From contig JBFOMH010000004.1 of the NCBI GenBank assembly GCA_040830765.1, positions 1 to 64,000 on the forward strand: 64,000 nucleotides of DNA, read 5' to 3'. The notes under the pieces are model-generated. The model had not been told where the DNA came from. It saw nothing but the letters and a program-made list of their open reading frames with translations, and ran no database searches. The translations under genes were made by a program, and so were the position numbers. The stretch comes from Puniceicoccaceae bacterium (GTDB taxonomy: Bacteria > Verrucomicrobiota > Verrucomicrobiia > Opitutales > Oceanipulchritudinaceae). How positions within the stretch are numbered: position 1 is the stretch's first letter; every line of letters begins with the position of its first letter. Below are positions 115 to 53,387 of this stretch, one piece after another.

Positions 115-1014
115 TTGCTCACGGGCGCAACAGCCTTTGTGGTAGTTCTTCTGTTTTTCCCGAGGGCACAGTTCCAGATATTTTCCGGCCTTCCGGATGT
201 TGCCGCCCGCCTCCATTCCAGCGCGGCGGAGATCCCGCTGCTCTTTGCCGGACAGGTTTCGGACGCCGGAGATGGGCCCATCACCTATGCCCACGGCTTC
301 TTTCTCATCTCGACACCGCTCTGGATGCTGCTCCTCCTGGCCCTTGGCATCGGACTTCTCGTCCGGCATCTCACGAGGGGTCCCGAGGGCCTGATGGTGC
401 ATTGGTTTGTCCAATGCCTCTTTCTTGCCGCCGCCGCCTTTCCGTGGGTCTACATCCTTGTCACCCAACCGGCCTTGCACAACGGGATCCGTCATCTCCT
501 CTTTGGGATCCCCCCACTGGTGGTCCTGATGGCCTACGCCGTCGACCAGATGGCCGAGTTGCTGGCGGAGCGCCCGCGTATGGTTCAGGGAACGGCCGGG
601 GGACTGCTGGCAGGCTGTATCATCCTCCAGGTTGCCGGACTTGTCCGCATGCATCCCTACCAGTACGTCGCCTTCAACATGTTCGCCGGTGACCGGACAA
701 CCATTCCCAACCGTTACGAAACGGAGTACTGGTTCACCTCCTCAAGGCACCTGCTGGAGGCCATGCCGGCCATCATTAGCCAGGAGGGCTCAGCCATCCG
801 CCCCGGACAACCGGTCAAACTCCGCATTGCCGGCCCCCTCAACGCAGCCCGGCCCTTTGTCCCGGATGGATGTGTCCTTGTTGATTCGATTGAAGAAGCG
901 GACTACTACCTCTCCAACACCACCTTCCGGACCGACTTGCTGGCCGAGGGCGAAGTCGTCTACCAAATCAACCGGGGCGGAATGACGCTCGGTGTGGTCA
1001 AGCAACTCCAATAA
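115..1014 (+). CDS. C-terminal part of a polytopic membrane protein, ArnT/PMT (GT-C)-like glycosyltransferase; 5' end apparently disrupted
   Basis: Several TM segments with HNGIRHLLF and HPYQYVAFN...YETEYW motifs, resembling GT-C-like membrane glycosyltransferases. In-frame TAG stops lie upstream at 70-72 and 82-84. Confidence 0.55.
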   Translation: MLTGATAFVVVLLFFPRAQFQIFSGLPDVAARLHSSAAEIPLLFAGQVSDAGDGPITYAHGFFLISTPLWMLLLLALGIGLLVRHLTRGPEGLMVHWFVQCLFLAAAAFPWVYILVTQPALHNGIRHLLFGIPPLVVLMAYAVDQMAELLAERPRMVQGTAGGLLAGCIILQVAGLVRMHPYQYVAFNMFAGDRTTIPNRYETEYWFTSSRHLLEAMPAIISQEGSAIRPGQPVKLRIAGPLNAARPFVPDGCVLVDSIEEADYYLSNTTFRTDLLAEGEVVYQINRGGMTLGVVKQLQ

Positions 1015-1031
1015 CCGGCAATCCAACGTTC

Positions 1032-2066
1032 ATGAGATTCCTGATAGAAGCACACCACCCAGGGGATATCCATTTCTGGAAATACCCCATCCGGGAGTTG
1101 CAAAATCGAGGACATACCGTGCTGATGGTGGCACGAGACCGGGATGTCATGAAACGACTGGTCACGGCCTATGACTGGATACCCCACGTCATTCCCAGGA
1201 GACGGAACAACCAGAACAAATTTCCTCTTCTTGAAATGCTCTCACGTCAATGGGCCGTAGCAAAACATATACGAAGCTTCCGCCCGGATATAGTTTGCAG
1301 CCTGTTCGGCAGTTACTGCCAGAGCGCATGGCTGTTTCGAAAGCCTAACTACATCTTCACCGATTCCGAATTCCAGCATTTCAATCATCGCATCGCCCAC
1401 CCCTTCGCAACTGAAATCCACACACCTTATTGTTTTTATAAGCCACTGGGCCCGAAGCAACGGCACTACAACGGTATCCACGAGCTGTCCTTTCTTGATA
1501 GCCGCCGGTTTCATCCGGATGCCTCACTGCTGGACACTATTCCCGGATTCAAACCCCGTGAGTATGTACTCATCCGCCTTTCAGCCTGGAACACCTTCCA
1601 TGACATCAACCAGGAAGGCATCGGGGCCGGGGTAACGGCCTTCATTGAGCGATTCAAGGACCGTTACCGGATCGTCATCTCAGCGGAAGAAAACCAGCTC
1701 CCGGAGGAGCTTCGCCGCTACGCCATGCAGTTTCCACCGGAGGACTTCCACCACATCCTGGCATTTGCCCGCTTTGTCCTCACTGAAGGCGCTTCCACTG
1801 CCAGCGAAGCCGCCTGCCTCGGCGTCCCCACGGTCTACATCAATTCCACGGAACCGCGTGGATACCTCTGCATGCTGGAAAAGGAATACGGACTGGTGCA
1901 AAACTTCCGGGAAGCGGACAAAGGCATTCCCGCCGCCATCAGTTGGCTGGAGCAGCTTGACCGGGATAAACTGCATGCCCTCCAGTCCGAACGGTCCCGG
2001 ATGATTAACGACCATTGCGACGTGTGCAGTCACGTTGTCCAGGTCCTCGAAAATGGGGTTCGGTGA
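1032..2066 (+). CDS. DUF354-family putative glycosyltransferase (GT-B-like)
   Basis: N-terminal HHPGDIHFWK...GHTVLMVARDRD, FTDSE, YNGIHELS and EGASTASEAACLGVPTVY are characteristic of DUF354 proteins in polysaccharide loci. Confidence 0.75.
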   Translation: MRFLIEAHHPGDIHFWKYPIRELQNRGHTVLMVARDRDVMKRLVTAYDWIPHVIPRRRNNQNKFPLLEMLSRQWAVAKHIRSFRPDIVCSLFGSYCQSAWLFRKPNYIFTDSEFQHFNHRIAHPFATEIHTPYCFYKPLGPKQRHYNGIHELSFLDSRRFHPDASLLDTIPGFKPREYVLIRLSAWNTFHDINQEGIGAGVTAFIERFKDRYRIVISAEENQLPEELRRYAMQFPPEDFHHILAFARFVLTEGASTASEAACLGVPTVYINSTEPRGYLCMLEKEYGLVQNFREADKGIPAAISWLEQLDRDKLHALQSERSRMINDHCDVCSHVVQVLENGVR

Positions 2067-2166
2067 GACCACTGGAGGCCGGCGGCAGGTCCGGATTTCT
2101 GCTTTCCATGACAGGGTTTCCCTTGCCTCCCGACCACCTCTGACTTCCAATGAGCCGCGGTAGATC

Positions 2167-3588
2167 GTGCAAAAGAAACGGCGACAACTTCTCTATTTCA
2201 CTAACAATGACAGCGGGCGCGATGTTGAGATGCTGCTGCCTCTTCTGTACTTCGCCGAACGGTTCCTGAACTGCGAGGTGACAACAAGCCTGACCCCGAA
2301 TATTCACGAGATATTCCGACGCAAACCCGACTGTGTGGTCCTCGCCAACACGATCGGGGCAAAACTCCACTTCGATATTGCCCGGATTGCCACTGGGGCC
2401 GGTATTCCGGTTTTTGCCCTTGTTTCGGAAGGCAATTTTCCGACCGATGGGTCCTTTAACTACTGGGGATATAATTCTGCCCAAAAGCTGTACGAAGCGT
2501 TTCTGTGCTGCTGGTCCCCCCGGACCCGCGACTTCATGCAGGCTCAACTACCGGACCAGGCGGAACAAATTGTCCTCACCGGAGCACCCGGATTTGACCG
2601 CTACCAGATTTATTCTTTCTCGACGAGGGAGGCCCTTCTCGAAAAGCATGGCATCGACAAGGAACGGTTCAAGCGCTTCATCGGTTATGCCGGGTGGGGA
2701 TTCGGCAAGCTGGGCCACCCGCGCGGGCGCAAGGAGTTGCGGCAATACTTCAAGGGCGATGCCGGAAAACTGGATTGGGCCGAGCAGCAGCGCAAAGCCC
2801 TGGAAAAAATCCTGGAGCAGGCCGTGGTCGCCAATCCGGATACCTTGTTCATTTTCAAAAAGCACCCCACCGAGACCGTGGCCGCAGAAGGGAACGCAGA
2901 CCTTAATGAAATGGCAGCTCTGCGGCACTACCCGAACGTCCTCTACCTCCTTGAAGAAAACCTTCACGACATCATCAGCAGCGTCGACCTCTGGTGGGTT
3001 TATGAATCCACCACCGCAATTGAGGCGGATATGATGGGGAAAGAGACCGTTTTTATCGTACCCGATGATGACTTTCCTCGCACGGAACTCCACGAGGGAT
3101 TTCCCGAAGTGAGAAACTATCCCGACTTGCAGCAGATGACGGAGGCCTTCTTTAGCGGCGGTTCCCTGCCCTCCTACGAGGCGTTGTCGGGGAGAAGAAA
3201 TGAAATAATCGTCAACACCATCGGATGGAGTGACGGGCTCAACCATGTCCGGGCGGCTTATTATTTATCCAGGACATTGGAATCAGCGCCTCCCGCCGCC
3301 AAGTCTGGCATCTCCTGGTATTATTTTCTCGTCTACTGGATTCTGCGCGGCCTTACTGCACCATGGTTTCCCCGACGGCTTTACGCATTGCCATTCCTGT
3401 CCAGCAAAAGCTGGGTCCTGAAACGTTACAGCCTCGTAAATCTCCCGCGTCTGAGAGAACGGTATCGCCCATTCCTGGAATCCTTTTATACAAGAAATGA
3501 TATTCCGGGGCGATTCCGTGATGGAAGCCTCTTTTCAAGTGTTTTAAAACAGTCTAATTCTAATCTTACTGACTATGGAACTGAATGA
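2167..3588 (+). CDS. Surface-carbohydrate biosynthesis protein, GT-B-like; candidate nonulosonate transferase
   Basis: TGAPGFD, FKKHP and ESTTAIEA motifs. Overlaps the pseB start. Confidence 0.55.
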   Translation: MQKKRRQLLYFTNNDSGRDVEMLLPLLYFAERFLNCEVTTSLTPNIHEIFRRKPDCVVLANTIGAKLHFDIARIATGAGIPVFALVSEGNFPTDGSFNYWGYNSAQKLYEAFLCCWSPRTRDFMQAQLPDQAEQIVLTGAPGFDRYQIYSFSTREALLEKHGIDKERFKRFIGYAGWGFGKLGHPRGRKELRQYFKGDAGKLDWAEQQRKALEKILEQAVVANPDTLFIFKKHPTETVAAEGNADLNEMAALRHYPNVLYLLEENLHDIISSVDLWWVYESTTAIEADMMGKETVFIVPDDDFPRTELHEGFPEVRNYPDLQQMTEAFFSGGSLPSYEALSGRRNEIIVNTIGWSDGLNHVRAAYYLSRTLESAPPAAKSGISWYYFLVYWILRGLTAPWFPRRLYALPFLSSKSWVLKRYSLVNLPRLRERYRPFLESFYTRNDIPGRFRDGSLFSSVLKQSNSNLTDYGTE

Positions 3589-48503: not shown

Positions 48504-49385
48504 TTAGAGCCGGCAGGTCCGGATGTCCTGGGCGATGATGCCCTTGCCGCCCAATTCGCTCAGTTCGTCGATGATCCTGTTCAAACCGGCCGACTTGACC
48601 ATGGCGGCAACCGCCATCCAGCCCTCTTCGCTGACCGGGGAAACGGTCGGACTCTTGACCCCCGGGGTGATGCGGCAGGCTGCCTCCAGCGCGTCGCTGG
48701 GAATAACATACTCCAGCAGGACATATTCCCGCGCTACAAGAATGCCCTCGAGACGCTTGATGAGGAGGTCCAGTCCCGCGACCGCCTCTGTCTCCTGGCG
48801 CTGGATGAGGATTGCTTCCGAACGGAGAACTGGTTCCCCGATAATCTCCAGTCCGGCCTCCACCAGCGTTCTTCCGGATTCAACGACATCCGCGATGGCA
48901 TCGGCAACACCCAGCTGGATGGAAATTTCCACCGCCCCGTCCAGGCGAACGGTCTTGGCTTCAATGCCCCTTTCCTGGAGATCCGCCCGGACAATGTTCG
49001 GATAGCTGGTGGCAATCCGCATTCCCGCGAGGCCGGAAGGATCCAGCCCCTGGTCCTTTGGCGCGGCATAGCAAAAGCGGGACTTACCGAAATTCAGGGC
49101 CATGCATTCCGTCACCGGTGCCTTCGAGTCCACAGCGAGGTCCCGTCCGGTAATGCCGGCATGAATGAGGCCGGACCCGACGTAGACAGCAATGTCACGC
49201 GGCCTCAAGAAGATGAACTCCACCTCGTGCTCCGCATCGCGGACAACCAGTTCGCGACTGTGACGGCGACAGGCATACCCAGCCTCACTTAATATCTTCA
49301 CGGCCCCCTCGGAAAGGGCCCCCTTGTTTGGAATAGCCAGTTTCAACATTTCCATATCCCTCCCCTTAAAGGTATCGGTAGACAT
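48504..49385 (-). CDS. hisG: ATP phosphoribosyltransferase (long form)
   Basis: [34 protein letters not shown]...[14 protein letters not shown] and a C-terminal regulatory domain. Confidence 0.96.
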
Positions 49386-49629
49386 CCTCCAGTTTCAATT
49401 CGTTGGCCAGCATCATGACCTGGGCGTAGTACAGGAGCTGGGAGATTTCCTCAGCCGCCTCTTCCTTGCTCTCATAACGCGAGGCCATCCACACTTCCCC
49501 GGCCTCCTCGATCAGCTTTTTGCCAATGGCATGCTTGCCCCGCGCCAGGAGCTTGACCGTCCCGGATTCCGGGTCGCCGCGTTCCGCCTTTTCTGACAAC
49601 TCAGCGAATAAACTTTCAAAATCTTTCAT
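49366..49629 (-). CDS. hisE: Phosphoribosyl-ATP diphosphatase (monofunctional)
   Basis: [14 protein letters not shown]...EEISQLLY; directly upstream of and overlapping hisG. Confidence 0.94.
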
Positions 49630-49683
49630 GAACCGACCAACAAAACGCCTCCTGCCCTTTCCCACAATGGCAAATTTTCCTCT

Positions 49684-49710
49684 TTGACATGATTTTTACA
49701 TTTGTAAAAC
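49684..49710 (+). promoter_or_regulatory. Candidate sigma70 promoter (TTGACA) overlapped by the perfect palindrome TTTTACA-TT-TGTAAAA
   Basis: TTGACA at 49684-49689 and palindrome at 49694-49709. The SD-like AGGAGA lies just upstream of the ATG at 49751. Confidence 0.55.
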
Positions 49711-49750
49711 CTGCACATATCCCTCAACCTTGGGACAGGAGAATTAGAAC

Positions 49751-50518
49751 ATGGCGAAACCAAAACCACTCATACTGATCGTCGAGGACGATCCTGAACT
49801 TGCCCAGTTGATTTCCGACCAGCTGGAATCGGCAGGAATGCTGACCCAGGTCCATCACCGGGCCGCCAACGTTACCCGCTACCTGCAGAACAACTTTGCC
49901 AACCTGATGTTGCTGGACGTCAACCTTCCGGACCAGTCGGGATTTGCCCTAGTTGACACCCTCAAGCAGGAGGACATCGACCTTCCGGTCATCTTCCTGA
50001 CGGGTAACGACAGCGAAACGGACCGCGTCAAGGGCCTGGAAATGGGCGGAGACGACTACATTACCAAGCCCTTCAGCTTCAGTGAGCTGGTGGCCCGGAT
50101 CAATGCCGTCCTGCGCCGCGCGGAGACCTCCAAGGATGACAAGGTGACCAAGAACGCCAGTGTCTCGGAGGAACCCTTTGAGTTCCAGGGGGCGATGGTG
50201 AATCCGGAACGGATGGAAATCGGCTTCCCGGATGGGGAGTCGGTCAAGATTGGGCGCAAGGAACTGGGCATCCTGTCCTTCCTCAATTCCAATCCGAACA
50301 CGGTCATCACCCGCCGGACCCTCATCCACGGCGTCTGGGGCATCCATGCCGACGTCCGCAGCCGCAGTCTTGACCAGTACATCGTCAAGGTCCGGGGCCT
50401 CTACCAGAAGCACGGACTCAACCTGGATGCGTTCAAGACCATCCATGGTGTGGGCTACATCTACAACACCGAGGGGGAGGCGGATGAAGCCGAGTCCACG
50501 GAGAGCCCGGTAGAGTAG
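49751..50518 (+). CDS. OmpR/PhoB-family DNA-binding response regulator
   Basis: Receiver domain with VEDD, phosphoacceptor LLDVNLP, FLTG and YITKPF. Winged-helix output with HGVWG, RSLDQYI and TIHGVGY. Confidence 0.94.
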   Translation: MAKPKPLILIVEDDPELAQLISDQLESAGMLTQVHHRAANVTRYLQNNFANLMLLDVNLPDQSGFALVDTLKQEDIDLPVIFLTGNDSETDRVKGLEMGGDDYITKPFSFSELVARINAVLRRAETSKDDKVTKNASVSEEPFEFQGAMVNPERMEIGFPDGESVKIGRKELGILSFLNSNPNTVITRRTLIHGVWGIHADVRSRSLDQYIVKVRGLYQKHGLNLDAFKTIHGVGYIYNTEGEADEAESTESPVE

Positions 50519-50529
50519 GCTCCCTGCCC

Positions 50530-51186
50530 ATGGAACTGGAACCGAAAACGATCCGGGTCCTTGGAGCCCTGATGGAGAAGGCCCGTACAACCCCGGAAAG
50601 CTACCCCCTTACCCTCAACGCGCTGGTCCATGCCTGTAACCAGAAGACCAGCCGGGACCCCGTGACGGACTATGACGAGGACGAGGTACTGGACGCGCTG
50701 GACGCGCTGCGGGAAATGGGATTCGTCATGCGGGTCGATCTGGCCGGCTCACGAACCGCCAAATTCCGGGAGAACCTGAGTACCCAATGGGACCTGAGTG
50801 CTGAAGAATATGCCCTCCTGGCCACCCTCTTCCTGCGGGGTGCACAGACCCCCGGGCAGCTCCGCCAGCGTTCCGACCGCATGCACCCGTTTGCTGACTT
50901 GCAGCAGGTGAATGATTGTCTGCACCAGATGCAGGAACGGGAGGAAGAGCCGCATTGCCTCGTCCGGTCGCTGGAACGCGCCGCCGGGACCAAGGAGATC
51001 CGCTGGGAACACACCTTTTTACCGGAATCCGCCCCGGCAGCTGGGATTGTTGAAGAGGAGGAGCAGAAACTTCCACCCCCGCAAAACCAGCAACCCAGCC
51101 GGATTGACCAGCTGGAGGAAAGACTGGCGGCATTTGAAAACCGCCTCAAGGCCATCGAGGAGCTGCTCCATGAGCTCAACGACTGA
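50530..51186 (+). CDS. yceH: YceH family protein (DUF480)
   Basis: RVLGALMEKARTTPESYPLTLNALVHACNQKTSRDPV and LRGAQTPGQLRQRSDRMHPF, plus a C-terminal coiled coil. Confidence 0.9.
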   Translation: MELEPKTIRVLGALMEKARTTPESYPLTLNALVHACNQKTSRDPVTDYDEDEVLDALDALREMGFVMRVDLAGSRTAKFRENLSTQWDLSAEEYALLATLFLRGAQTPGQLRQRSDRMHPFADLQQVNDCLHQMQEREEEPHCLVRSLERAAGTKEIRWEHTFLPESAPAAGIVEEEEQKLPPPQNQQPSRIDQLEERLAAFENRLKAIEELLHELND

Positions 51187-52492
51187 ACCCACGGGGAACG
51201 GTCTGGTTCTCCTCGACCACAAGACGGTCATCAAGGGGAAGTTTCCACCACTGGAGGTCTATCCGCTTGATGCCCCGACCGGATCCGCCTGGGTGGGTGA
51301 GTTTGACGGAAAGGTGGCATGGCTGTCACTGGGTGACCTCGACGAAAACGCCATCCGCCGATACTGGAAAGGGGAAGTCCGGATCGCAGATGAAGGCCGC
51401 ATCGGTCCTGGGGACCTGTTTGAGGCTTTCCAGGGACAAGCCCGGCTGGAACTGGTGCCCGTCGGGACTGCGTTCCAGCTGTCGGTCTGGCAGGAGCTGG
51501 TTCGTATTCCTTTTGCCACTACACTGACCTATGGGGAACTGGCCGAACGGCTTGGCTCGCCTTCCAAGGCAAGGGCTGTCGGCACGGCAGTGGGGGCCAA
51601 CCCCATCGCCTGGCTCATTCCCTGCCACCGGATCCTTCCGGCTGGGGGCGGCATTGGCAGCTACCGCTGGGGCAGCGCGATCAAGGAGAGCCTCCTGAAC
51701 TGGGAAAACCAGCCCCATCCCACCGGCGCTCCCGATCAGGATGTCGAGGACATCCGCAAGCTGGAAGCGATGCTGCTCAATGCCCAGCGCTTTGAGGACA
51801 TCGCCAAGCTGGCCGGGCACATTGCCCATGACTTGAACAACCTCCTCGCCCCCATCCGGATGGCGACCGAGTTACTGAAGCGCAAACTGGAAGATGATTC
51901 GGTCGGGCGTTATGTGGAAATCATCGAGACCAGTACCGGCCGGGCCCGGGCGGTGATCCAGGAAATCCTTACCTATGCGAGGGAATCGGAAAGCGCGGAC
52001 GCGGAAGTGATCGACATCAACCAGCTTCTCGAGGAACTGGAAGGTCTGGCAGATGATACTTTCCCGGATACGATTACCCTGTCATTTGACTATGATCCGG
52101 AAACTCCCCTGGTGAGCATTGCCCCGCACCAGCTGCACCGCTCCATCCTCAATCTTCTGGTCAATGCCCGGGACGCCATTTCCGGCAGCGGCGAAATCCG
52201 GGTCAAAGTCAGCACCCATGATTTGGAAATGCGGGTCTGCGTCGGGGACCGGTGCATTGTCCCGGGACGTTATGCCTGTATTTCCGTTTCGGATACGGGT
52301 TGTGGCATCAGTCCGGAAATCCGGGAGGAAATATTTGATCCCTTCTTCACCACCAAGCCGAAGGAGAAAGGTACGGGCCTCGGGCTGGCCTCGGTCTTCG
52401 GGATCATCGCCCGATCGGGTGGATTCATCGACCTCGAATCAATCGAGGGCAAGGGCTCGACATTCCATCTGTTCCTGCCTGAAGCAGGATGA
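51170..52492 (+). CDS. Fusion protein: methylated-DNA--protein-cysteine S-methyltransferase (Ogt) plus histidine kinase (HisKA-HATPase_c)
   Basis: Ogt part: GTAFQLSVW..L..IP...TYGELA..LG.P..ARAVG.A...NP....IPCHR...YRWG..K..LL.WE. Coiled-coil linker, then AGHIAHDLNNLL, NLLVNARDA, DTGCGI, IFDPFFTTK and GTGLGL in one uninterrupted frame. Confidence 0.92.
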   Translation: MSSTTEPTGNGLVLLDHKTVIKGKFPPLEVYPLDAPTGSAWVGEFDGKVAWLSLGDLDENAIRRYWKGEVRIADEGRIGPGDLFEAFQGQARLELVPVGTAFQLSVWQELVRIPFATTLTYGELAERLGSPSKARAVGTAVGANPIAWLIPCHRILPAGGGIGSYRWGSAIKESLLNWENQPHPTGAPDQDVEDIRKLEAMLLNAQRFEDIAKLAGHIAHDLNNLLAPIRMATELLKRKLEDDSVGRYVEIIETSTGRARAVIQEILTYARESESADAEVIDINQLLEELEGLADDTFPDTITLSFDYDPETPLVSIAPHQLHRSILNLLVNARDAISGSGEIRVKVSTHDLEMRVCVGDRCIVPGRYACISVSDTGCGISPEIREEIFDPFFTTKPKEKGTGLGLASVFGIIARSGGFIDLESIEGKGSTFHLFLPEAG

Positions 52493-52500
52493 ATGGCCCG

Positions 52501-52800
52501 TTATTCCTTTTTCTCAGGAGCAGCTTCTGCCTCGGGGGCTTCCGCAGCGGGCGCCGGTGGCGGCACCTCTTTGGCGGCTGGTGGAGCCGGCTTCTTTTCC
52601 GGCTCAACGGAATCCATGGCTTCCTGAAAATCGTCCTGCACTTCCTGGGCGGCCTTCTTGAATTCCTTCATGGACTTGCCCAGCCCCTTGGCCAGTTCCG
52701 GAAGCTTCTTGGCCCCAAACAAAAGCAGAATGATAACAAGGATAATCAGCAGCTCGGGACCACCGAAACCCTGAATAAATGCTGGATGGAGTAAATTCAT
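52501..52800 (-). CDS. tatA: Twin-arginine translocase subunit TatA
   Basis: [38 protein letters not shown] with a Pro/Ala/Glu-rich tail. Confidence 0.93.
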
Positions 52801-52934
52801 CAACTTCAACCATAAGGTGGGCGGGGCATCTGTAAAGGATAAGAAACAGCTGCCATGGAATGCCGGGAATGTTCTTCGCGCTTGCAAAGTCGCCCGGCCA
52901 TTTGCTTCCTTTGTAGGGGAAGTTTCCCACTGCC

Positions 52935-53387
52935 ATGAAACCGATTAGGCGAGACGAATTAACAACAGCATACATGACCGCCCTGCAAGAGGCAGAAGCC
53001 GCCCTCGAGCAGAGCTATTGCCCGCACTCCGGGCTATCCGTGGCCGCCGGCCTCGTCCTTTCCTCGGGGGAAGTGATCACGGGCATCAACTACGAAAGTG
53101 TCTCCTACGGACTGACCCTGTGCGCCGAGCGCAGCGCCATTACCCGTGCCCAGGTCGAAGGCAAAATCCCGGACGTGGTAGGGCTGGTCCTGTCCGCCTG
53201 CAACCGGGAATCTGAAAAAGACGGTCAGCCCCTCACTCCCTGTGGAGCCTGCCGGCAGTGGTTGCTAGAGCTGAGCAACCGCCTCGGGCGGGACATCCCC
53301 GTCTACAGTTTCTGGAAGGGCACTGATTCCGGATTGGCCGGAACGGTGCGTGAATTATTACCATCGGCCTTTGAATCATTCCAATGA
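52935..53387 (+). CDS. cdd: Cytidine deaminase (homotetrameric type)
   Basis: [30 protein letters not shown] and ELLPSAF. Confidence 0.88.

Follow-up and report, generated by a model that had tools for sequence, protein, structure and literature searches.

Gene content of the locus

The window analysed here, the first 64,000 nt of contig JBFOMH010000004.1 from a Puniceicoccaceae bacterium (assembly GCA_040830765.1), carries between hisE and tatA three genes on the same strand. They encode a response regulator (RR), a YceH protein of the DUF480 family, and a soluble histidine kinase with an O6-alkylguanine alkyltransferase domain (Ogt/AGT) at its N-terminus (Table 1). An earlier note, made from the sequence alone, had described the trio as a complete damage-signalling module with YceH as a possible DNA-binding accessory. 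The trio is a real two-component operon that is restricted to one genus, and damage signalling by its products is plausible, although Ogt may be cargo rather than a sensor. The layout reported earlier was fully confirmed by the open reading frame (ORF) list and Pfam, including all coordinates, the 11 nt between the RR stop and the yceH ATG (50519-50529), the 17-nt overlap of yceH with the kinase gene (51170-51186), and the boundaries at hisE and tatA. The kinase frame as a whole runs from 50912 to 52492, and an in-frame ATG at 51170 gives the 440-residue protein.

Table 1. Features of the operon and its borders, in window coordinates (AF2, AlphaFold2; pLDDT, predicted local distance difference test)
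Feature	Position	Strand	Length or basis
Response regulator, OmpR/PhoB family, receiver and winged-helix output	49751-50518	+	255 aa; ORF list and Pfam
yceH, DUF480 (UPF0502), two winged-helix repeats and C-terminal helix	50530-51186	+	218 aa; ORF list and Pfam
Soluble histidine kinase with N-terminal Ogt/AGT domain	51170-52492	+	440 aa; ORF list and Pfam
Ogt domain, residues 9-180	51194-51709	+	AF2 pLDDT 93-98, two-lobed
Acceptor cysteine Cys152 of PCHR	51623-51625 (codon)	+	PCHR is residues 151-154
Pro-rich disordered linker, residues 183-189	51716-51736	+	AF2 pLDDT <50
Kinase core: DHp helices, residues 190-272, and ATP-binding domain, residues 279-438	51737-52483	+	AF2 secondary structure
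Phospho-acceptor His220	51827-51829	+	Invariant in alignment
Palindrome TTTACAttTGTAAA, candidate RR box/operator in the hisE-RR spacer	49695-49708	.	Conservation and genome scan
hisE (phosphoribosyl-ATP pyrophosphohydrolase), divergent left boundary	49366-49629	-	Pfam PRA-PH
tatA, convergent right boundary	52501-52800	-	Pfam TatA_B_E, 75.5 bits

In the kinase protein, Pfam recognises DNA_binding_1 (PF01035, the Ogt domain; 98 bits against a cut-off of 27), HisKA (44.6 against 26.9) and HATPase_c (79.2 against 26.4); it finds no Response_reg domain, in agreement with the earlier statement that the kinase lacks a receiver of its own. The AF2 model has a mean pLDDT of 87.2, and a DHp helix of 50 residues runs from residue 190 onwards, with His220 about 30 residues in. 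We aligned the window protein with 73 proteins picked from the first 76 of 120 listed homologues. This set of 74 holds 48 Ogt-bearing proteins, 19 Ogt-less ones (a few of them possibly truncated gene calls) and 7 with another N-domain. The close homologues carry the source names Puniceicoccaceae, Oceanipulchritudo or Puniceicoccales, which marks the organism as one of the marine Verrucomicrobiota. Residues H220, N328, N332, D375, G377, G379, G401, G403 and G405 are invariant in all 74, and the H-box reads HDLNN. The Ogt domain scores well above the cut-off of TIGR00589 (92.4 versus 46.4), keeps PCHR in 48/48 Ogt-bearing members, and retains in its consensus the ARAVG and GANP motifs, which we take to serve DNA binding. 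Residues 1-100 gave no Pfam match to the Methyltransf_1N lobe even at E = 10; in the AF2 model, residues 9-100 fold confidently into a beta/alpha lobe (pLDDT 95-98). By sequence criteria, the domain is a bona fide AGT. No PAS, GAF or HAMP domain and no transmembrane segment was found N-terminal to DHp by Pfam and AF2, and only Ogt precedes it. The model thus places Ogt where input domains sit, yet without a rigid helical link to the kinase.

Pfam assigns Response_reg (93.2 bits, residues 8-118) and Trans_reg_C (PF00486, 49.5 bits, residues 162-237) to the RR. Residues D13, D14, D56, T84 and K106 are conserved in an alignment of 30 orthologues; these are presumably the CheY phosphorylation residues (acidic pocket, phospho-acceptor Asp, Thr and Lys), and the earlier observation that the regulator retains them stands. 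All of the 25 listed NCBIfam equivalog matches fall under their cut-offs, the best being PhoB (NF053854) with 158.2 bits against 270. By these scores the RR is a generic OmpR/PhoB-family member that fits no named equivalog (PhoB, CreB, OmpR, BaeR etc.).

YceH matches PF04337 (DUF480) with 186.6 bits against a gathering score of 25, its residues 3-153 covering profile positions 1-148 of 149. It is not an equivalog of E. coli YceH (NF008413/PRK11239; 160.6 bits, cut-off 321). Three PDB entries are related to it, namely 5u8j, 5vyv (E. coli YceH) and 3bz6; each is a winged-helix protein with no stated function, and 5vyv aligns with 127.8 bits over 202 residues. Many Arg, Lys, Asn and Gln residues are invariant in the family alignment. 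In the parts of the literature that were available, no function was found for DUF480/YceH/UPF0502. An excerpt of a preprint places E. coli YceH in a predicted interaction cluster labelled "negative regulation of transcription", and the yceH of B. subtilis is an unrelated gene.

RNA data came from an oligo-dT metatranscriptome study with the label "mollusc metagenome" (three runs) and from additional runs. A single 3162-nt contig of run X2 (49765-52926) spans the RR gene from its 15th nucleotide onwards together with yceH, the kinase gene and tatA, and a contig of run X4 also begins at 49765. The only positions that the RNA-library contigs leave uncovered are 49636-49764 and 52927-52942, the two divergent promoter regions. 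Because the gaps coincide with these regions, the cover can be argued to be RNA rather than carried-over DNA, and it fits a single RR-yceH-kinase transcript. A scan for promoters and terminators at the locus returned about as many matches as expected from shuffled sequence, and no signal was taken from it.

Conservation, history and a candidate operator

The RR was found in 12 of 13 genomes of the genus, the thirteenth (G309, 84% complete) not being assessable. Inspection of the 12 genomes with tblastn and ORF lists located every locus between hisGE and tatA-cdd-AI-2E, with a kinase orthologue directly downstream of the RR in 12/12; hisGE adjoins the RR in all 12, and tatA is syntenic in 10/10 loci whose contig covers that side. 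Three arrangements occur. Seven genomes have RR-YceH-Ogt::kinase as in the window: G000 (the window genome), G310 (the same as locus L003 and counted once), G202, G278, G314, G135, whose locus is split over two contig ends, and G312, in which the kinase is cut by a contig end. RR-YceH-kinase, with a kinase of 263-277 residues that lacks Ogt and has only about 25-45 Pro-rich residues ahead of DHp, is present in G013, G311 and G313. In G287 and G308 the order is RR, a separate Ogt of 190 residues with PCHR, and a kinase of 405/406 residues with a different N-domain; there is no operonic yceH. The N-terminal 156 residues of the G287 and G308 kinases have no Pfam match at E = 10. In the G287-type model they form beta2-alpha3-beta3 (mean pLDDT 68), a topology from which we judge the domain to be PAS-like. 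Loci with yceH have no N-terminal sensor fold on the kinase besides Ogt (10/10), and those without it have the beta2-alpha3-beta3 domain (2/2). The RR and the kinase are thus the invariant pair, while Ogt and YceH are each separately losable.

The gap between the RR and yceH is 7-21 nt in all ten genomes that have operonic yceH, and an ATG stands 17 nt ahead of the yceH stop in eight of them (the G310 ATG gives an 8-nt overlap; G312 is undecidable), so that the tight packing of the genes is not due to chance. Across the genus, YceH identity falls to 52% and that of the kinase core to 57% over its full length (47% over the partial core of G312). Neighbourhood comparison revealed no RR-yceH without the kinase (0/10) and, in an order-wide search, no kinase away from the RR. 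Together with the RR-spanning RNA contig, this upholds the earlier view that the genes act as a unit, and the separation that the earlier note had named as grounds for abandoning it was not found.

Among 301 genomes of the order, the window genome included, kinase orthologues (at least 57% identity over the core) occur only in the window genome and in 5/5 sampled genomes of the genus. Among the 295 further genomes searched in the order, no match exceeds 46% identity, and the best ones are hybrid kinases. A caveat that had been raised earlier, namely that kinases of this type usually have CckA/NtrC-type partners, is fair, since the closest relatives beyond the genus are receiver-bearing hybrid kinases. 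A contig search with the single kinase protein gave 48 loci, of which L003 is the only true relative; the other 47 are generic kinase cores with 23-39% identity and were not used. The operon pair is co-located and co-inherited in the genus (12/12), and the RR stands alone in other genera. The genes downstream of the RR in 18 other-genus loci are unrelated and mostly convergent (5'-3' exonuclease in seven, Omp85, T2SS ATPase, TruA etc.); one such locus has a convergent hybrid kinase, and on the other side 12 of the 18 have hisE as the divergent neighbour.

DUF480 is a single-copy family, present in 102/301 genomes of the order and 108/401 of the phylum. At none of the 62 loci outside the genus does it stand beside this RR/kinase pair, and its neighbours there are heterogeneous (argininosuccinate lyase at five loci, a DsbH-like thioredoxin at four, BrkB at three). 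A two-component gene directly adjoins it at two of the 62, with a TPR kinase downstream in L117 and an NtrC-type regulator upstream in L115; L086 and L103 have a HATPase or Hpt neighbour, and in L118 and L119 over 2.5 kb separate it from the nearby kinases. The clue to DUF480 function that the earlier note hoped for hence survives locally, for this genus, and fails as a general one, with the pair missing from 62/62 outside loci. L117 (positions 649-3249) belongs to G095, from another genus of the same family; there, 183 nt separate yceH from a downstream gene on the same strand for a 641-residue kinase with TPR and HATPase_c, and it is the only other locus of the 62 with DUF480 directly ahead of a kinase.

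In a YceH tree, the operonic copies cluster with the other YceH proteins of the family. By this placement the operonic YceH is the native orthologue of the genus, relocated into the operon. The C-terminal motif of the family, F..F+.QF, is replaced in the operonic copies, at the overlap with the kinase start. G287 and G308 have instead a non-operonic DUF480 copy that clusters with other families of the order. The G287 copy (L124:1-3512, contig C216) ends a same-strand run RmuC - MarC - SRAP - YceH, a neighbourhood which, with its SOS-response-associated peptidase (SRAP), has a possible DNA-damage flavour; the G308 copy is at G308:C173:9163-9609. A binning artefact in G287 is an unlikely explanation, since G308 also has such a copy.

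A kinase-domain tree of the 74 proteins (FastTree, rooted on the G287-type clade, supports not read) has the Ogt-fused forms as a paraphyletic background. Because the Ogt-less forms nest among them, in at least two clusters, the fusion is probably the old state. In a tree of hisG, hisE and RR, G287 and G308 are sister to G312 (support 96) and near G202 and G278, and the three Ogt-less genomes group with G135 and G314 in the other clade; the supports at deeper levels range over 40-67. The G287/G308 arrangement was also considered as the ancestral one and was rejected, given that the two genomes are sister to G312 rather than basal; the deeper nodes there have a support of only 40-51. A family-wide comparison indicates that the RR, its boxes and the hisGE synteny are older than the kinase cassette. 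The most economical history would be that an old orphan RR gained a cassette of YceH and Ogt-kinase in the ancestor of the genus and that Ogt subsequently disappeared on one or two occasions; a single lineage (G287/G308) would, again most economically, have separated Ogt from a kinase with another N-domain and lost the operonic yceH. G311 and G313 have one PF01035 match each elsewhere in the genome. In G013, reported as 100% complete, the sole PF01035 match is a 69-residue frame that covers profile positions 35-80 (G013:C3:2368-2505), and this organism may be without any intact O6-alkylguanine alkyltransferase.

The RR orthologue is single-copy in 34/37 genomes of the family, with 56-96% identity. 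About 45-55 nt upstream of its ATG, a palindrome (TTTACAnnTGTAAA / TTTACANNTGTAAA) is kept in 12/12 genus genomes, and it occurs once in the 3.99-Mb window genome, where 0.08 occurrences are expected. In other genera, 17 of 18 loci have TGTAAA/TTTACA half-sites no more than 300 nt ahead of the RR, among them four of the six without hisE next door; genome-wide, there are 658 half-sites in 3.99 Mb. The exact palindrome TTACA-N0-4-TGTAA is present at 7/18, again with four of the six loci that lack a hisE neighbour. G074 and G186, from a genus without DUF480 matches (0/2), have the perfect TTTACANNTGTAAA ahead of the RR, and the palindrome is also found in genera whose yceH sits elsewhere in the genome. 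The element therefore goes with the RR and not with hisE or YceH, and given its presence in 12/12 genus genomes and in genera without DUF480 it is probably an autoregulatory RR box rather than a YceH box. Candidate -35/-10 elements read by eye around the palindrome were dropped, as they are not conserved across the genus.

Two stretches of the receiver have genus-specific sequence. In 12/12 genomes of the genus, helix alpha1 (residues 14-23; window 49790-49830) has the sequence DPELAqLISDQ, where most other genera have DKQIAQMISEQ, and beta5-alpha5 (residues 107-114; window 50060-50090) reads FSFSELV in the genus and FSFPELI elsewhere; the RR of G230 is intermediate in these substitutions. Both stretches are known as kinase-contact surfaces, and the changes are consistent with a retuning of the RR to a new kinase.

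Possible roles of the alkyltransferase domain and YceH

Our preferred explanation, held tentatively and at somewhat less than even confidence, is that the kinase sets the phosphorylation state of the RR, that the RR autoregulates, that Ogt provides the input, and that YceH modulates the kinase. The three genes would be expressed on one mRNA from a promoter with an RR box; the kinase would phosphorylate or dephosphorylate the RR, which would feed back on its own operon. The Ogt domain would couple the kinase to O6-alkylguanine in DNA, either by holding the kinase on damaged DNA or through irreversible self-alkylation of Cys152 that inactivates or destabilises the whole fusion. With either option, alkylation stress would shift both the level of phosphorylated RR and the amount of alkyltransferase available. 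YceH, whose translation would be coupled to that of the kinase, would act as the trans-acting partner of a kinase that has no sensor, and in G287 and G308, without operonic yceH, the PAS-like domain would take that place in cis. A predicted complex of two copies of kinase residues 185-440 with YceH, computed from alignments, scored 0.00, which counts neither for nor against binding.

Known systems offer partial parallels. As in Ada (E. coli Ada and the AraC-Ogt fusions), an alkyltransferase is fused to a regulatory module, so that alkyl transfer could lead to a transcriptional response. In Ada the switch is methylation of the N-terminal Cys38 and not of the Ogt cysteine. By contrast, the operon proteins lack Ada_Zn_binding and the AraC HTH, and their output would be relayed by a histidine kinase to a separate RR. 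In the best 120 of 3943 matches to the Ogt region, taken from proteins of 242-770 aa, all kinase fusions are members of this kinase family and the remainder are mostly AraC-Ogt proteins, the nearest non-kinase relatives, with about 55-61% identity. A fusion query to ESM Atlas matched generic HisKA/HATPase clusters alone, and no cluster of at least 50 members combined Ogt with a kinase; this is uninformative on rarity. With stand-alone Ogt/AGT (MGMT) the domain shares DNA_binding_1, PCHR and the two-lobed fold (75 bits against the M. tuberculosis Ogt chains, 4bhb and related); it differs in being covalently joined to a DHp and ATPase core. For that core the closest solved chain is Caulobacter CckA (5idj, 146.8 bits, residues 204-437), with HDLNN and the N, G1 and G2 boxes in common. 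Unlike CckA, however, the operon kinase has no PAS array, receiver or membrane anchor, its neighbour is an OmpR-type RR instead of a ChpT/CtrA relay, and it stays far below the NCBIfam CckA equivalogs (187.8 and 181.2 bits, cut-offs 1000). The operonic YceH is a DUF480 member like E. coli YceH (5vyv, 5u8j, 3bz6), from which it differs by its remodelled C-terminal end and, unlike the 62 other loci, by its place within a two-component operon. Soluble kinases controlled by small partners are familiar from PII-NtrB and from Sda or KipI with KinA. The proposed logic of YceH, a cytoplasmic kinase set by a separately encoded protein, would be analogous, although those partners have no sequence relation to YceH and its binding to the kinase is a proposal.

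Several observations weigh against the preferred explanation. The RR is an orphan in 18/18 loci of other genera (within ±1.5 kb), and because of this it must have another kinase there. YceH is not enriched near signalling genes at the 62 loci outside the genus, and the alternation of YceH with the PAS-like domain probably reflects one evolutionary event. The nearest relatives of the kinase are CckA-like hybrid kinases. The RNA-library contigs are unstranded and so do not establish a single molecule, DNA carry-over is possible, and tatA transcripts may supply the 3' cover. The genome scan found no second perfect palindrome; TGTAAA/TTTACA half-sites paired within 30 bp gave only five further pairs at four places, two of the pairs inside ORFs. 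No RR target beyond its own locus is in evidence (the ORFs beside the other half-site pairs were listed, not Pfam-annotated), and with no other convincing site in the genome, no regulon, for DNA repair or otherwise, can be named. The canonical Ada of the same genome could already cover the adaptive response. The disordered linker in the AF2 model leaves no rigid path from Ogt to the DHp helices, and Ogt is dispensable, being missing from 3/12 genus genomes and 19/74 aligned family proteins. It is a separate gene in 2/12 genus genomes; there, the operonic stand-alone Ogt is the sole PF01035 match of the genome and looks like a housekeeping repair enzyme rather than a sensor. The absence or separation of Ogt, the linker, and the greater age of the RR and its operator do not bear out the description of the locus as a complete damage-signalling module.

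The main alternative is that Ogt is cargo rather than a sensor, with the RR and kinase reading another cytoplasmic signal via YceH or the PAS-like domain; Ogt would have begun as a neighbouring gene and later been fused in frame, its only link to signalling being shared transcription and stoichiometry. This agrees with the disordered linker, with the clean loss of Ogt from three genomes in which RR-YceH-kinase and the 17-nt overlap persist, with the single AGT of G287 and G308 being the operonic one, with an RR, boxes and hisGE synteny that predate the cassette, and with the finding that no repair gene was identified beside the other paired half-sites, whose neighbouring ORFs were listed and not Pfam-annotated. 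We nevertheless regard it as somewhat unlikely, as the fusion has kept PCHR in all 48 Ogt-bearing members down to 47% identity, Ogt occupies the input position directly N-terminal to DHp with no other sensor domain present, and the fused form is the background state in the kinase tree. A more novel reading is a circuit of an undescribed kind that senses consumption. Each repair event would alkylate Cys152 and switch off, or mark for degradation, one kinase; the unspent Ogt pool would be read as phosphorylated RR, with restocking via the sole operator, and YceH would modulate the bare core in place of the PAS-like domain. Such a circuit needs no allosteric path and so fits a disordered linker, but as a specific proposal it is distinctly unlikely.

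That the neighbourhood is a historical accident, a housekeeping YceH caught between an orphan RR and a kinase that each have partners encoded elsewhere, would suit the single-copy status of YceH and its heterogeneous neighbours at 62/62 loci outside the genus, the solitary RR of other genera and the CckA-like hybrid relatives of the kinase. It is nonetheless quite improbable: the arrangement persists in 12/12 genus genomes through the sequence divergence of YceH and the kinase core given above, the start/stop overlap is conserved, the RNA-library contig is continuous, the kinase never occurs away from the RR, and the contact surfaces of the RR carry genus-specific changes. The earlier suggestion of a damage-signalling trio in which YceH is a DNA-binding accessory, acting with the RR at the operator or on damaged DNA, draws on the two winged-helix repeats and their many invariant Arg, Lys, Asn and Gln residues, on winged-helix PDB relatives, and on co-transcription of yceH with the RR in the RNA-library contig. 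It did not hold up and is very improbable, given the perfect palindrome of G074 and G186 in a genus with no DUF480 match, its occurrence in genera with yceH elsewhere, and the operon without yceH in G287 and G308.

What sets this locus apart appears to be an undescribed domain at the input position of an ordinary two-component core, accompanied by a genus-specific accessory protein. Many kinds of input domain are known from two-component kinases. In the portions of the literature that could be consulted, no alkyltransferase-kinase fusion or alkylation-sensing two-component system was found, and no kinase turned up there whose only input-position domain is, as the sequence indicates here, a suicide DNA-repair enzyme with an intact active-site motif. 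Another methylation-dependent transcription switch in bacteria is described in PMC10957082. If Ogt is indeed the input, the operon would represent a second, phosphorelay-based form of alkylation sensing in bacteria beside the Ada methyl switch, and a naturally occurring sensor that is irreversible and serves only once. The fused, Ogt-less, and split forms with a PAS-like domain make up a natural deletion series within one genus. Were the consumption-sensing circuit true, YceH would be the first DUF480 protein with a defined partner. For DUF480, a family with three solved structures, there is a real link to signalling, but it is confined to one genus and yields one testable partner, not a family-wide function. 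The window genome also encodes a canonical Ada (G000 contig C8, L001:601-1785, plus strand) composed of Ada_Zn_binding, AraC HTH, Methyltransf_1N and DNA_binding_1, and thus has two alkyltransferase-based regulatory proteins, Ada and the Ogt-kinase.

Flanking genes

On the right, the stops of tatA and the kinase gene are 8 nt apart. The tatA frame (52501-52887, minus strand) has 128 residues when counted from the first TTG; because the Pfam match and the orthologue alignments begin near residue 29-42, the alignments at residue 29-30, the true start is probably an ATG near 52800. The left flank is hisG-hisE on the minus strand. Orthologue alignments of hisE begin at residue 13, where an ATG stands, so that its start is most likely at 49629 and not at 49665. 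On the hisE side of the spacer, the DNA of a block in 49630-49690 (...CAAAAC...CCCACAATGGAAATTTT) is nearly invariant across the genus. The block reads as codons 1-12 of the long hisE frame, though the orthologue alignments begin only at the ATG at 49629; possibly it serves hisE as a leader or promoter element.

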